Below are positions 41,486-54,655 of a DNA stretch of 64,000 nucleotides, in pieces. The stretch covers positions 352,001-416,000 of the forward strand of contig CAWEYG010000001.1 in NCBI GenBank assembly GCA_963813155.1, read 5' to 3'. Both the position numbers and the translations under genes were made by a program. The notes below the pieces were generated by a model. That model was not told where the DNA came from. It saw only the letters and a list, made by a program, of their open reading frames with translations, and did no database searches. The DNA comes from an uncultured Acidobacteriota bacterium (GTDB lineage: Bacteria; Acidobacteriota; Thermoanaerobaculia; UBA5066; DATFVB01). The first letter of the stretch is position 1. Each line of letters opens with the position of its first letter.

Positions 41486-42266
41486 ATGAAAGCCGTCATC
41501 CTCTGCGGCGGACAGGGAACCCGAATCCGAGACGCCAGCGAGCTTCTCCCCAAGCCGATGCTGCCGATCGGGAACCGTCCCATCGTCTGGCACATCATGA
41601 AGATCTACAGCGCCTTCGGGATCAAGGACTTCGTCCTGTGCCTCGGATACAAGGGCTGGCTGATCAAGGAATTCTTCCTGAACTACCGGGCCGCGATGGC
41701 CGACGTCACGGTTCACCTGGGACAGGACCGGGCGCCCGATTTTCGCCAGCGCCGCAGCGAGGAAGAATGGAACGTCACGCTCGTCGACACGGGCGAACAG
41801 ACGCAGACGGGGGGCCGCGTCGCCGCGATCCGCGAGTACGTCGAAGGCGACGAGCCCTTCTGCCTGACGTACGGGGACGGCGTCGCGGACATCGACATCG
41901 GCAAACTGGTCGAGTTTCATCGGCAGAACGGAAAGGTCGCGACGGTGACGGCCGTTCGCCCCCCCAGCCGGTTTGGAGAAATCCGCACGGAGGATTCGAT
42001 CGTCCGCGAGTTCAACGAGAAACCGCAGGCCGGCGCGGGATTCATCAACGGCGGGTTTTTCGTTTGCGACGGCCGTCGAATCTGGGATTACCTCGGCGAC
42101 GCCGAGACCCTGCTGGAAAAGGAGCCGATGCAACGGCTGGCAGCGGAAGGCCAGCTCTCGGCCTTTTCCCACACGGGCTTCTGGCAGCCGATGGATACAC
42201 TCCGCGAATACAACCTCTTGAACGAGCTCTGGGCAGAGCGGAGACGCTCCCTGGAAGACCTGGTGA
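41486..42266 (+). CDS. rfbF: glucose-1-phosphate cytidylyltransferase
   Basis: KAVILCGGQGTRI, PKPM, LVDTG..TQTGGR, LTYGDGV and GFWQPMDT motifs. A terminal indel obscures the APWKTW* end. Confidence 0.93.
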
Positions 42267-43396
42267 CGAGCGCGCCCAAACGGCCTGATGCGCTCCGCGA
42301 AGCCTTCTCCGGCAAGCGTGTCCTGCTCACGGGCCACACGGGCTTCAAGGGCGCGTGGATGACGATCTGGCTGACGGAGCTCGGCGCCAGCGTCACGGGG
42401 TTCGCGCTGGCCGCCGAGACGCGCTCCCTCTTTGCCGGCGCGGGGGTTTCATCGCTTTGCCGGCACCACGAGGGCGACGTTCGCGATCGAAGCGCCATCA
42501 TCTCTCTGGTCGCCGAGCTTGCGCCGGACTATGTTTTCCACCTCGCCGCTCAGTCGCTGGTCCGGCGCGGATATCGCGAGCCCCAGGAGACGTTCGAAAC
42601 GAATGTCCTCGGAACTGCGAATCTTCTCGAGGCAATCCGTCTCGCGAATCGCCCCTGCGCCGTCGTCATCGTCACGAGCGACAAGTGCTACGAGAACGAC
42701 GGCCGCACGACACCCTACCGCGAGAGCGACCGCCTGGGAGGTCATGATCCGTATTCCGCGAGCAAGGCGGCGGCCGAAATTGTAGTTTCCGGCTATCGGT
42801 CAAGCTTCTTCCCGCCGGAACGACTGGAAAATCACGGCATCGCGGTCGCGAGCGCCCGCTCGGGAAACGTGATCGGAGGAGGCGACTGGAGCGAGGACCG
42901 CCTGGTGCCAGACGCCGTTCGCGCGCTCGAGCGGGAAATACCGGTAGCCGTTCGAAATCCTCGCTCCGTCCGGCCCTGGCAGCATGTCCTGGACCCACTC
43001 TCCGGATACCTCCTGCTCGGGTCCAGGCTTGCCGCGGGCACCCCCGGGGAGCGGGCGCATTATGGCGAAGCGTGGAACTTCGGACCCGATTCCTCCAACT
43101 CTCGAACGGTCGCCGACGTGATCGGGGAAACGATTCGACGCTGGGGTTCCGGCTCCTGGGCCGAAGCGAGCGATCCTTCCGCGCCGCACGAAGCGGCACA
43201 TCTGGCCCTCTCGATCGAGAAAGCTCGGGAAAGGCTCGGGTGGTCGCCGCGCTGGGGTTTTGGAGACGCGGTCCGACACACGATCGACTGGTACCGGGCG
43301 GTCGAGGGCGGCGAAGCGAGTCGCCAGGCGGAGCTTTGTCGCTTTCAGATCGACGAATACGCGCGCGCGCCCGAAGGGGCCGGGGCTTTGCCGTGA
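42263..43396 (+). CDS. rfbG: CDP-glucose 4,6-dehydratase
   Basis: [46 protein letters not shown] and RPWQHVL motifs. Confidence 0.94.
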
Positions 43397-43418
43397 ACCT
43401 CCAGGAAATCGTGTATTC

Positions 43419-52231: not shown

Positions 52232-53470
52232 ATGACGACGCCCACGACGATTCACGACTTCAAGCCCGGCGATACCGTTCTTTCCTGCAAGTATATCGAA
52301 ATGGGCTCCTGTTTCGAGCCGGAAGGAATTCATTGCTGCATTCAGGGCACCGTCAGATCTCCTCGCATCATCACGGCCGACGAAATCCGGACCGGTAAAG
52401 CGACTTATGACTTGGTCGTCCAGCGAAGGCGTGACCTGTTCGACACGATTAACGATCCCTCCGTGGGGCCGCCGGATCCCTGCAGAACATGCGCCAATCT
52501 CAAGCCGACGAAATATCGGAACGTGAGCTTCGAATATCTGGGCGGCGAGAAATTGACCGCTGGCCTTAACATTCAGCACTTCACCGACTGCAATCAGCGC
52601 TGTAAGTATTGTGTTTGGACAATACAAGATTATTTCGTCAAGCCCCAGTACGACCCGCTTCCTTACCTGGAGGAATTCAGGAAGGCAGGAAAACTTCGCG
52701 GCAACAATTGGATTGACTTCAGTGGCGGTGAGCCGTCCACGCTCAAGAATTTTCCAGAGCTCCTGGGTTATCTGCTCGATAACAACATGGGGACGGTCGT
52801 CGTCTATTCGAATTCTGTCATTTTCAGTCAAGCGATCTACGACGCCCTGAAGCAGAATAAGATCATCTTGACGACATCTCTGGATGCGGGAACGCCTTCG
52901 ACTTACAAGAAAGTCAGGGCCATGAACGCTTATCCGACCGTCCTCAGGAATTTGATCCGCTATCGGAACAGTGGAACGAAGGGGTTGTGGCTCAAATACA
53001 TCATTACAGATGACAACAGAACAGACGATGATCTCTGGGGTTTCGCGCAGGCGATGCTGGCGCTTCGGCCGGACAAGATCCAGATATGCCCGGATTTCCC
53101 TTACGGCGAACGCCAGTTGCCCGAGGAGACGGTCCAATTTGCCGCCAGGATGTTTCATATCCTGGAAAGGTTGACGGGAATGAAACCGGTGGACTACACG
53201 ACCGATTTCGGCGATCCGAAATGGGTGAAATACCACGAGGACCTGGCGAAGGCGATTCAGGAGCTGGCGGAGAAAAATCCCTATGGGGACCATGAGCGCT
53301 TCCAGAAACTGAAACCATCCTCGACGATGCGAAACCTGACCGTCGCGTTGCGAAACAAAATCGATCGGTTTTGGCACAGCGGGTTTCGCGGGAAGGTGCT
53401 GCCTCCCGGAAGCGCCAGGGAAAGATGGGCCACCAATACCTACCGGCGCACCCTTGCACGCTTTGTCTAG
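52232..53470 (+). CDS. radical SAM protein with N-terminal Cys-rich (SPASM/twitch-like) region
   Basis: CNQRCKYC, FSGGEP, YSNS and SLDAGTPSTYKKVR motifs; N-terminal C...C...CC...CxxC. SD GGAGG. Confidence 0.88.
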   Translation: MTTPTTIHDFKPGDTVLSCKYIEMGSCFEPEGIHCCIQGTVRSPRIITADEIRTGKATYDLVVQRRRDLFDTINDPSVGPPDPCRTCANLKPTKYRNVSFEYLGGEKLTAGLNIQHFTDCNQRCKYCVWTIQDYFVKPQYDPLPYLEEFRKAGKLRGNNWIDFSGGEPSTLKNFPELLGYLLDNNMGTVVVYSNSVIFSQAIYDALKQNKIILTTSLDAGTPSTYKKVRAMNAYPTVLRNLIRYRNSGTKGLWLKYIITDDNRTDDDLWGFAQAMLALRPDKIQICPDFPYGERQLPEETVQFAARMFHILERLTGMKPVDYTTDFGDPKWVKYHEDLAKAIQELAEKNPYGDHERFQKLKPSSTMRNLTVALRNKIDRFWHSGFRGKVLPPGSARERWATNTYRRTLARFV

Positions 53471-53533
53471 CCGCCACAGATCTCGGAGACGGATGCGTTT
53501 ACGAGCGCATACTGCCGCTCGTGTAGAGAGCTG

Positions 53534-54655
53534 ATGCCAGAAACAGACTCCATCTTCGACGAACTGTTCGTGCTCGAGCTCGCCAACAACCACTGGGGCA
53601 AACTCGAACGAGGCCTCAAGATCATCGAAGACTTCGGGAAGGTCGTTCGCTACAACAACGTCAAGGCGGCCATCAAGCTTCAGTTCCGGGACGTCGACAA
53701 CTTTATCCACCGCGACTTCCGGGACCGAACGGACATTCGCTACATCAAGAAGACGATCGACACGCAGCTCTCGAAAGATCAGTACCGGGAGCTCACCGAA
53801 GCGATCCGGGCGAGCAACTGCCTGCGCATGGCGACTCCGTTCGACGAAGCCTCGGTCGATCTCTGCGTCGAGCTCTCGATGGACATCATCAAGATCGCGA
53901 GCTCCGACATCAACGACTGGATCCTGATCGAGAAGATCGCGAAGACGCGAAAACCGGTCATCGCGTCGACAGGAGGCTCCTCGCTCAAGGATACGGACGA
54001 CCTCGTGAAGTTCTTTCGCAACCGCAACATCCCGCTGGCCATCAACCACTGCGTTTCCCTCTATCCCAGCGAAGACGCCGACCTCGAGCTCAATCAGGTC
54101 GACTTCCTGCGAGATCGCTACCCGGACCTGACGATCGGATTCTCGACCCACGAGTACCACGACTGGACGTCGTCGATCATGATGGCGTACGCGAAGGGCG
54201 CGCGAACGTTCGAGCGCCACATCGACATCGAGGCCGACGGAATTGCCGTCTCGCCGTACTGCACGCTGCCCGAGCAGTGCGACCAGTGGTTCAAGGCATT
54301 CAAGAAGGCGAAAGAGATGTGCGGAGCGCCGGGCTCGCAGAAGCGGATTCCTCCGCCGAAAGAGACCGCCTACCTCGACGCTCTCGTTCGCGGGGTCTAT
54401 GCCCGGTACGACCTTCCCAAGGGATACCGCATCCACGACGACGACGTTTACCTCGCGATCCCGCTCCAGAAGGGACAGATTTCCTGCCGTGAGCTGATCG
54501 CCGGCGAGCCGCTGACGCGCGAAGTCAAAGCGAACGAACCCGTCAAGGTCGACATGTTCGACACGCCCTACGCGCACAATCCCGAGCTCCGCCGGATCGT
54601 CGAGGAGCGCGGGATCGATCCCCCCGCGGCCCCGCCCCTGCGAAGCGTGAAGTAG
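53534..54655 (+). CDS. NeuB-family PEP-dependent ulosonate synthase with SAF domain
   Basis: LELANNHWG, IKLQFR, TPFDEASV, IKIASSD, HCVSLYP, GFSTHE, FERH and C-terminal RGVYA motifs. Confidence 0.88.
   Translation: MPETDSIFDELFVLELANNHWGKLERGLKIIEDFGKVVRYNNVKAAIKLQFRDVDNFIHRDFRDRTDIRYIKKTIDTQLSKDQYRELTEAIRASNCLRMATPFDEASVDLCVELSMDIIKIASSDINDWILIEKIAKTRKPVIASTGGSSLKDTDDLVKFFRNRNIPLAINHCVSLYPSEDADLELNQVDFLRDRYPDLTIGFSTHEYHDWTSSIMMAYAKGARTFERHIDIEADGIAVSPYCTLPEQCDQWFKAFKKAKEMCGAPGSQKRIPPPKETAYLDALVRGVYARYDLPKGYRIHDDDVYLAIPLQKGQISCRELIAGEPLTREVKANEPVKVDMFDTPYAHNPELRRIVEERGIDPPAAPPLRSVK

Follow-up and report, generated by a model that had tools for sequence, protein, structure and literature searches.

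Branched higher-carbon sugars, among them yersiniose, erwiniose, caryophyllose and gastriose, occur as rare surface antigens, and the thiamine diphosphate (ThDP)-dependent enzymes of their pathways are wanted as catalysts for chiral tertiary alcohols. YerE adds a pyruvate-derived acetyl unit to cytidine diphosphate (CDP)-4-keto-3,6-dideoxyglucose, after which YerF carries out a reduction (Steitz et al. 2022, PMC9306805). ErwE, MMAR_2332 and MyGE, of the erwiniose, caryophyllose and gastriose systems, take 4-hydroxy-2-oxo acids of C4 to C8 in vitro, and a linked pyruvate aldolase, either BphI-like or of the aldolase/citrate-lyase family, makes those acids (PMC9306805). Here we analyze a related gene cluster at positions 41486-54655 of a 64,000-nucleotide stretch of DNA (hereafter the window; G000:C1:352001-416000) from an uncultured Acidobacteriota bacterium, whose genome assembly comprises 3.8 Mb in 23 contigs, is 90.8% complete and has ~63% GC. 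Beside its gene for a YerE-like ThDP enzyme the cluster carries a gene for a NeuB-like synthase. We estimate a probability of roughly 0.6 that the cluster directs the synthesis of a CDP-activated, C4-branched 3,6-dideoxyhexose of the YerE type, with the NeuB-like protein supplying the donor and the branch exceeding two carbons (C2).

A preliminary description of this DNA knew of no characterized pathway with this enzyme set in this lineage. The type of pathway is nevertheless known: its general scheme is already set out in PMC9306805, and a 2025 review (PMC12247030) refers to Krug et al. 2024, where more than 200 YerE-like clusters were surveyed in silico. The NeuB-like partnership is the new element. 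Our literature search returned no paper linking YerE with NeuB, PseI, sialic acid synthase or ulosonic acids, the supplements, Krug et al. 2024 and Lanza et al. 2024 lying outside its scope, and no paper joining CDP-glucose, acetolactate synthase and neuraminate synthase. A paper on the phylogeny of nonulosonic acid synthases (PMC8208679) makes no mention of thiamine, acetolactate or 3G8R.

Yersiniose A synthesis in Yersinia pseudotuberculosis (DdhA-D, YerE, YerF) shares with the window the CDP-glucose route, ThDP-dependent acylation at C4 and an NAD(P)H reductase acting on the branch. The window differs in that no E3 (DdhD) was found, in having a ThDP enzyme that is closer to JanthE than to the YerE homologue of solved structure, and in having a linked, dedicated NeuB-like gene; its export is also proposed to proceed through a GtrB-like glycosyltransferase family 2 (GT2) enzyme and GT-C glycosyltransferases, not through an O-unit glycosyltransferase alone. 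The clusters for erwiniose (ErwE/F/I/J), caryophyllose (MMAR_2331-2333) and gastriose (MyGE/MygF/MygI) have in common with the window a YerE-like ThDP enzyme, a YerF-like reductase, keto-sugar genes and a linked enzyme capable of forming a 4-hydroxy-2-oxo acid. Those clusters rely on a pyruvate aldolase as supplier, whereas the window would use a phosphoenolpyruvate (PEP)-dependent synthase of the NeuB family, and the supplier types are mutually exclusive in 69 of 69 supplier-bearing loci. JanthE from Janthinobacterium sp. HH01 (PDB 8rph, 8rpi, 8rpj) is the best solved relative of the ThDP enzyme and has a CDG motif where the window has GDG. NeuB, PseI and LegI share the NeuB domain with the window's protein, which keeps site residues of meningococcal NeuB, misses the NeuB and PseI cut-offs and has no linked CMP-transferase or amino-sugar genes. 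Finally, the systems for three-component glycosylation in the periplasm, GtrA/GtrB/GtrC, ArnC/ArnT and the streptococcal PgfS-PgfM1-PgfM2, resemble the window in their GtrB-type GT2, flippase candidate and nearby GT-C genes, and GtrA and PMT_2 occur in related loci; the window's proteins nevertheless score below the respective cut-offs, its flippase is Wzx-like and not GtrA, its GT-C genes lie on the other strand and its donor would be a CDP-sugar instead of a UDP-sugar.

Linkage of the NeuB-like gene to the ThDP enzyme

The established chemistry of NeuB-type enzymes is the condensation of PEP and an aldehyde into a 3-deoxy-2-ulosonic acid. Such acids are 4-hydroxy-2-oxo acids, the class of compound that the aldolases of the published scheme also produce. 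Compared with solved structures, the window's protein scores 225.9 bits against 3g8r, which has no assigned function, ~81 against meningococcal NeuB and 65.5 against PseI, and it misses the NCBIfam equivalog cut-offs for both NeuB (113.6 vs 399.65 bits) and PseI (110.4 vs 340.25 bits). Its residues H206 and H229 fall opposite the metal-binding His215 and His236 of meningococcal NeuB (1xuu) in the alignment, and it retains the PEP-site motifs E..NH.G, K.Q and KI.S. Relatives carry a SAF domain alongside the NeuB domain, and the protein atlas places the protein just in clusters named 'putative N-acetylneuraminate synthase family'. No CMP-transferase, NeuC or Pse/Leg gene was found at 41-57 kb of the window or among the recurrent families of the 80 genome loci defined below, and the genome's one good CTP_transf_3 gene is on a different contig. 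Elsewhere in the genome there are two further weak NeuB-family matches, at C1:168056-168640 (- strand, 41.5 bits) and C4:78539-79093 (+ strand, 35.1 bits).

Two scans served to place this gene in context. The first, seeded with an alignment of five orthologues of the ThDP enzyme and run on species-representative genomes, yielded relatives in at least 557 of 600 candidate stretches; the best 80 of these, with 51-67% identity and from many phyla, are referred to as the genome loci. The second used the window's NeuB-like protein as query and yielded relatives in 552 of 600 metagenome candidates, the best 80 of which (67-88% identity) are the metagenome loci. Core genes in the genome loci were counted by tblastn. 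For the remaining neighbors, all open reading frames (ORFs) within 8 kb of the ThDP gene were clustered and representatives searched with Pfam, giving 39 recurrent ORF families. Related loci are not independent, so the linkage and exclusivity counts overstate the number of independent observations.

A close NeuB-like orthologue (58-74% identity) is present in 40 of the 80 genome loci, distributed over many phyla. It is encoded on the same strand as the ThDP gene in 39 of the 40 and lies less than 300 bp from it in 24. The other core genes recur as well: rfbF in 42 loci, rfbG in 40, rfbH in 47, the gene for the GtrB-like GT2 in 45-47 and that for the short-chain dehydrogenase/reductase (SDR) in 31. 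The association also holds in the opposite direction, since a relative of the ThDP enzyme occurs in 59 of the 80 metagenome loci and in all 29 of those with at least 2.5 kb of flank on each side. Within the window's order, four of 41 genomes (G000, G002, G007 and G022) have a strong NeuB-like orthologue (at least 70% identity), every one beside a ThDP gene, and the gene arrangement recurs around ThDP relatives in 8 of the 40 other genomes of the order. The same gene set recurring in this way, the arrangement of the cluster is not a chance assembly. Four of 201 genomes from the order of a Polynucleobacter locus have NeuB-like relatives (E <=1e-40), and three of these adjoin rfbFGH and a ThDP gene. 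We conclude that the NeuB-like gene is a dedicated, conserved and reciprocal partner of this clade of ThDP enzymes.

One ThDP relative (L187:9742-11520, genome G196), whose neighbors are rfbFGH and a NeuB-like gene of 42% identity, carries SDG for GDG. This is a third variant of the ThDP motif besides GDG and JanthE's CDG; none of the ThDP genes next to NeuB-like relatives in that order has CDG.

The genome loci contain three types of gene that could supply a 2-oxo acid: the NeuB-like gene in 40, an HpcH/HpaI-type aldolase in 22 and a BphI-type (HMGL) aldolase in seven, with no case of co-occurrence. Exactly one supplier gene is thus present in 69 of 80 loci, and none lies within 8 kb in the other 11. 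All 22 HpcH/HpaI-type proteins match PF03328, and the best solved hits of their profile are class II pyruvate aldolases, at a weak 26 bits; for the HMGL-type family, the best NCBIfam match of the representative is 4-hydroxy-2-oxovalerate aldolase, at 99.5 bits and below cut-off. HpcH- or HMGL-type genes are likewise absent from the best 80 NeuB-like metagenome loci. On the tree of ThDP enzymes, whether built with FastTree or with the quick mode of IQ-TREE, supplier type switches at least 13 times, compared with 20-29 times in 200 label shuffles; these counts omit one long-branch row (L063).

Loci that are otherwise collinear carry the different supplier genes at one and the same position. Sphingobium chungbukense (L050) has the order rfbF-rfbG-rfbH-NeuB-like-ThDP-HAD-epimerase, HAD denoting a haloacid dehalogenase family gene, and in Sphingobium rhizovicinum (L064) an HpcH-like gene stands in the NeuB-like gene's place. 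Similarly, downstream of ThDP-dehydrogenase-DHQS-like (DHQS, dehydroquinate synthase), one locus (L020) continues with a kinase gene and then the NeuB-like gene, and two others (L021 and L037) directly with an HpcH-like gene. The window cluster contains no HpcH/HpaI or BphI aldolase, and the one HpcH_HpaI gene of the genome is on another contig. We infer that the NeuB-like gene fills the aldolase's role in the window cluster.

Several other families recur around the ThDP gene in the 80 genome loci: two separate families of HAD phosphatases (16 and 8 loci), FkbM (13), GtrA (11), Methyltransf_23 (10), PMT_2 (8) and, in 24 loci, a DHQS-like protein together with a short-chain dehydrogenase. The DHQS-like protein is an AroB-related putative sugar-phosphate phospholyase (TIGR04425, 292.3 bits, below the cut-off of 400). 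It and its FabG-like short-chain dehydrogenase (for example at L037:11833-13658) occur with either the NeuB-like gene or an aldolase gene, sometimes with an FGGY kinase, and the pair may make the aldehyde partner.

The carboligase, the proposed pathway and the length of the branch

We assigned gene families across the cluster by Pfam and NCBIfam profile searches, applying the equivalog cut-offs of the latter. RfbF, RfbG and RfbH each exceed their cut-off, and their genes lie 2-5 kb upstream of the ThDP gene on the same strand. The best solved relative of RfbH is the Yersinia E1 enzyme 3bcx (505.9 bits, against ~175-178 bits for ColD), and it retains the E1-type His-His and Cys-rich motif, with three of the four Cys within the aligned stretch. 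By these scores RfbH is assigned to the E1 type and not to the ColD type.

The ThDP enzyme has the catalytic-Glu motif HHEQA and the GDG-type ThDP motif CLAGDGS. As assembled, its gene is in five frame pieces (see below), and unbroken pieces score 108.3 and 130.8 bits against JanthE (8rph), 77.4 and 91.0 against PpYerE (5ahk) and 63.6 and 65.8 against acetolactate synthases. The same order is seen with the intact orthologue from G002, an unpublished genome of the same genus that supplied our same-genus orthologues (JanthE 439.7, PpYerE 283.7, acetolactate synthase 236.5 bits). For the orthologue in the public genome G007, JanthE again leads (410.2 bits), and PpYerE (247.0) is tied with the acetohydroxyacid synthase AHAS I of E. 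coli (247.7); the enzyme therefore sits with JanthE and not with YerE in the narrow sense. The intact orthologues miss all equivalog cut-offs for acetolactate synthase (for example 309.7 vs 538.35 and 313.9 vs 738 bits).

These scores bear on whether the protein is simply the organism's acetolactate synthase (IlvB), located in a sugar cluster by chance. It is the sole TPP_enzyme_N match in the genome (one among 10 candidates scored), and its best NCBIfam names are acetolactate synthases. The 90.8%-complete genome yielded no large subunit of acetolactate synthase; the assembly may lack that gene or have it in broken form, or else the organism is unable to make branched-chain amino acids. Against an IlvB identity, the scores are far below every acetolactate synthase cut-off, solved YerE-like enzymes outscore any acetolactate synthase, synteny with rfbFGH, the SDR gene and the GtrB-like gene is kept across many phyla, and Pfam scans of the window found no ilvN or ilvC adjoining. 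We regard the IlvB identity as highly improbable and reject the annotation as acetolactate synthase. Grouping with housekeeping IlvB had been named as the check on the preliminary description; by structure-relative scores and missed cut-offs the enzyme groups away from it, and the proposal of a YerE-type branching pathway on CDP-4-keto-3,6-dideoxyglucose is upheld by the lead of JanthE and PpYerE over acetolactate synthases and by the linked rfbFGH genes.

The SDR gene is directly upstream of the ThDP gene, and the same family appears in 29-31 of the 80 genome loci. Beside the ThDP gene, the YerF-like SDR is found in 29 loci and a 318-aa epimerase-family protein in 17, and the two are never found together. 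The latter reductase accompanies one of the HAD phosphatase families (HAD_a) in 14 of its 17 loci.

From these assignments a pathway can be proposed. RfbF, RfbG and RfbH (E1) would convert glucose-1-phosphate and cytidine triphosphate (CTP) to CDP-4-keto-3,6-dideoxyglucose. The NeuB-like protein would condense PEP with an aldehyde to a 4-hydroxy-2-oxo (3-deoxy-2-ulosonic) acid, which would be the donor for the ThDP enzyme; the latter, like JanthE and YerE, would decarboxylate the 2-oxo acid and transfer the acyl unit onto the C4 ketone. The neighboring extended SDR would then reduce the side-chain ketone in the manner of YerF. The resulting branch would exceed C2 and bear hydroxyl groups on C1 and C3 of the side chain and a methylene at its C2, and its length would be set by the aldehyde. 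In this scheme the NeuB-like protein would be a non-orthologous, irreversible replacement for the aldolase, a role that we infer from the genomic context. The aldolases whose slot the NeuB-like gene takes are of the families proposed as donor suppliers for erwiniose, caryophyllose and gastriose, and for this reason we prefer a branch of more than two carbons.

An unlikely alternative is that the ThDP enzyme uses pyruvate to form a yersiniose-type 4-C-(1-hydroxyethyl) branch, and that the product of the NeuB-like protein is a nonulosonic or ulosonic acid unrelated to the branch and destined for the same glycan. The genes rfbF, rfbG and rfbH with a ThDP enzyme and an SDR are exactly the yersiniose A gene set (PMC9306805), JanthE accepts pyruvate, and 11 of the 80 loci lack a linked supplier gene. 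Nonulosonic acids are also the usual products of the NeuB family. Such an acid is hard to accommodate, however, in a cluster devoid of CMP-transferase, NeuC and Pse/Leg genes and with a protein that misses the NeuB and PseI equivalog cut-offs by ~230-290 bits. Neither would a bystander be expected to take the slot of pyruvate aldolases without ever occurring together with them, or to have a ThDP gene in all 29 well-flanked loci. We therefore favor a NeuB-derived branch longer than C2.

A number of points weigh against this preferred reading. Linkage and exclusivity are indirect support for the chemistry, and a C2 branch is still compatible with the evidence because JanthE also accepts pyruvate (PMC12188165). 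The E3 partner that the preliminary description expected for RfbF, RfbG and RfbH did not materialize: no AscD/DdhD/RfbI-type reductase was found in the cluster or in the 90.8%-complete genome, whose sole PF00175 (NAD_binding_1) match is PyrK adjoining PyrD, and no FNR-type family is among the 39 recurrent ORF families near ThDP relatives. Four of the 11 supplier-less loci (L047, L054, L056 and L085) have full flanks, so this ThDP clade does not always require a linked supplier; conversely, one of four Burkholderiales-order genomes has a 40%-identical NeuB-like gene with no ThDP gene within ~8 kb. HAD phosphatase, DHQS-like and kinase genes, which elsewhere are found with the NeuB-like and ThDP genes and could hint at the identity of the aldehyde, are absent from the window. 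Consequently, of the longer polyhydroxylated side chain originally put forward, we retain a length beyond C2, from NeuB-like linkage and aldolase exclusivity, and drop both 'polyhydroxylated' and any particular chain length. As to novelty, Krug et al. 2024 and the supplements, being outside our literature search, may describe the NeuB-like pairing.

More broadly, we would give about even odds that a branch of the NeuB family has been recruited in many phyla to make 3-deoxy-2-ulosonic acids as donors for JanthE/YerE-like ThDP enzymes, not for CMP activation, yielding higher-carbon branched sugars exported on polyprenyl phosphate. The published scheme requires a pyruvate aldolase, and the NeuB-like gene is found in the aldolase's place in 40 of the 80 closest ThDP loci from named genomes and in more than 500 metagenome stretches. 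If the protein makes the donor irreversibly from PEP, this would be a second, widespread supply route and an undescribed counterpart of the aldolase route, and side-chain patterns would become predictable from sequence. It would also offer a candidate physiological donor for JanthE-type enzymes. The JanthE literature (PMC12188165) states that the physiological substrates were not identified and reports acceptance of ketones, of 2-oxo acids up to branched C6 and of 4-hydroxy-2-oxovalerate. Cultured isolates with intact clusters include Sphingobium chungbukense DJ77, Acidocella sp. KAb 2-4 and Methylobacterium sp. BTF04.

Frame shifts in three core genes

Protein-guided, shift-tolerant alignment against the G002 orthologues places ~17 extra bases in three core genes as assembled: ~10 in the GtrB-like gene, two in the SDR gene (~45962-45968 and 46380-46383) and five in the ThDP gene (47319, ~47806-47809, ~48029-48032, 48397 and ~48527-48533). 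An independent repeat of the alignment with public orthologues put shifts at the same places, and frame plots of GC content at third codon positions (GC3) also show the three genes to be broken. Nearly all of the shifts consist of one extra base, there are no in-frame stops, and the shifts are restricted to ~44.8-48.6 kb. Once corrected, the products are identical to their G002 orthologues at 246/323 (GtrB-like GT2), 207/343 (SDR) and 468/601 (ThDP enzyme) positions, no lower than the intact neighbors; against a public orthologue, the GtrB-like GT2 is identical at 191/314.

We consider it probable that these shifts are assembly errors. The other possibility, which we think improbable, is a decayed cluster, in which the ~17 shifts are real and the pathway has been lost in this strain and remains intact in its relatives. 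Decay would account for the confinement of the shifts between intact flanking genes (rfbH on one side and the soluble GT2, Wzx-like, radical SAM and NeuB-like genes on the other) and for their location outside homopolymers. It fits poorly with the lack of stop codons, with a corrected conservation equal to that of intact genes, and with a series of events of which almost every one is a single extra base, the signature of error and not a mutational spectrum. There are further split genes in the window, namely that of an amine oxidase and probably the end of rfbH, and, where compared, the close relatives seen in four metagenome runs from soil or rhizosphere are without the extra bases. We also count the split amine oxidase gene and a complete rRNA operon in the window as support for assembly error. 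The operon (30178-35412, - strand) comprises 5S (30178-30294), 23S (30368-33349) and 16S (33855-35412) genes, and its spacer contains two tRNAs (33471-33543 and 33629-33702). The operon accounts for a low-GC, ORF-free stretch of the window and suggests a long-read assembly.

The soil metagenome run X1 holds 0.36 of the words sampled from the stretch, and runs X2-X4 hold small shares (0.08-0.13). Contigs of X1 omit single bases at 47804, at 48028 and 48030, at 48398 and at 48533, that is, at or within six bases of four of the five shift sites in the ThDP gene, and have indels of their own. Two considerations temper this and count against a functional pathway in the strain. X1 represents a relative at ~97% identity, not demonstrably the same strain, and so its contigs are no proof of assembly error; and with three core genes broken as assembled, the pathway would be dead in this strain if the shifts were real. 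Separately, depth in all four runs spikes at 47538-48004, above all at 47885-47922 (44-125, against 1-15 elsewhere), many metagenome contigs stop or diverge at 47885-47891 and 47922, and ~30 bases of the ThDP gene are common to many other sequences.

One further extra base relative to orthologues, at 42236, joins the frames of rfbF and rfbG, so that a single open frame runs through both without a stop; their G002 counterparts are two overlapping genes in different frames. The single frame is either a true fusion or the result of one more extra base. In rfbH the part aligned to orthologues is intact and the frame runs open past the expected stop.

Gene inventory, export and accessory genes

All of the gene families first named for 41486-54655 were recovered, with corrections to frames and strand (Table 1). 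The 'tight, mostly overlapping operon' of the preliminary description is sound as far as the flippase gene and is broken thereafter, because the FkbM gene lies on the minus strand. A plus-strand ORF (51220-51927) previously read as FkbM has no Pfam match even at E 0.01 and was rejected.

Table 1. Genes of the cluster and adjoining membrane protein genes, with window positions and supporting matches
Feature	Position	Strand	Evidence
rfbF, glucose-1-phosphate cytidylyltransferase	41486-42235	+	TIGR02623 349.4 bits vs cut-off 300.25; Pfam NTP_transferase
rfbG, CDP-glucose 4,6-dehydratase	42239-43396	+	TIGR02622 451 bits vs cut-off 278.45; Pfam GDP_Man_Dehyd 129.5 bits
rfbH, E1-type CDP-4-keto-6-deoxyglucose 3-dehydrase	43419-44738	+	NF011936 691.1 bits vs cut-off 423
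GtrB/ArnC/PgfS-like GT2 (polyprenyl-phosphate sugar transferase type)	~44776-45761	+	Pfam Glycos_transf_2; ~10 single-base shifts
Extended SDR (Epimerase family), candidate YerF-like side-chain ketoreductase	~45776-46812	+	G002 orthologue: Pfam Epimerase 138.9 bits
YerE/JanthE-like ThDP-dependent carboligase	46851-48761	+	TPP_enzyme_N 112.3, M 113.2, C 80.5 bits
Soluble GT2 glycosyltransferase, intact	48763-49770	+	Glycos_transf_2 82.3 bits; no transmembrane-like segment
Wzx-like flippase candidate, intact, 11 hydrophobic segments	49786-51057	+	NF041503 WZX_like 56.1 bits, below cut-off 300
FkbM-family methyltransferase	51073-51903	-	Methyltransf_21 65.9 bits; TIGR01444 63.6 bits; frame favored by GC3
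Radical SAM protein, CNQRCKYC motif	52232-53470	+	Pfam Radical_SAM 49.2 bits
NeuB-family PEP-dependent synthase, separate 3g8r-like subfamily	53534-54655	+	Pfam NeuB 130.5 bits
580-aa membrane protein, convergent, 7 hydrophobic segments	54660-56402	-	Hydrophobicity scan; GC3 supports frame
Two tandem PMT_2-family GT-C genes	~57827-59400, 59422-61308	-	PMT_2 46.5 bits (ORF 57827-60970), 28 bits (59422-61308)

The GtrB-like GT2, the Wzx-like protein and the two PMT_2 GT-C genes, which lie 3-6 kb from the cluster on the opposite strand, suggest transfer from a polyprenyl-phosphate carrier outside the cytoplasm. The GtrB-like enzyme probably loads the sugar onto polyprenyl phosphate and, after flipping, the GT-C (PMT_2) enzymes would transfer it on the far side of the membrane. 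The best NCBIfam match of the G002 orthologue of the GtrB-like protein is PgfS (188.9 bits vs cut-off 500), and ArnC scores 113.6 against a cut-off of 529. Neither Pfam nor NCBIfam gives a match for the 580-aa membrane protein, and BLAST shows no similarity between it and a convergent 661-aa protein at the equivalent place in G002; the 580-aa protein is a possible membrane glycosyltransferase or polymerase, and its membership of the system is uncertain.

The FkbM and radical SAM genes had been thought to tailor the sugar, an idea that comparison with relatives does not bear out. The FkbM gene is on the opposite strand and is not the gene found in G002, whose locus includes a Methyltransf_23 gene and, on the same strand as the cluster, an FkbM gene of another kind; tblastn of the latter against the window gave no match. 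Radical SAM homologues are limited to 2 of the 80 genome loci and 2 of the 80 metagenome loci, with none at the G002 locus, and the window's gene sits in a lower-GC stretch (GC 0.556 at 52-54 kb). This protein has no solved relative at E 0.01 and weak NCBIfam matches (MoaA, viperin and SPASM-type), and the protein atlas returns generic radical SAM clusters. Both genes are strain-variable accessories.

Between the cluster and the PMT_2 genes is a gene of the flavin amine oxidase family, split over two frames (56203-57972, + strand): ORF 56203-57972 encodes the NAD_binding_8 N-terminus, and ORF 56339-57826 encodes the Amino_oxidase body. At 4637-8251 (+ strand), the window also encodes a cyanophycinase-type Peptidase_S51 protein followed by a cyanophycin synthetase with Cyanophycin_syn, ATP-grasp and Mur ligase domains.

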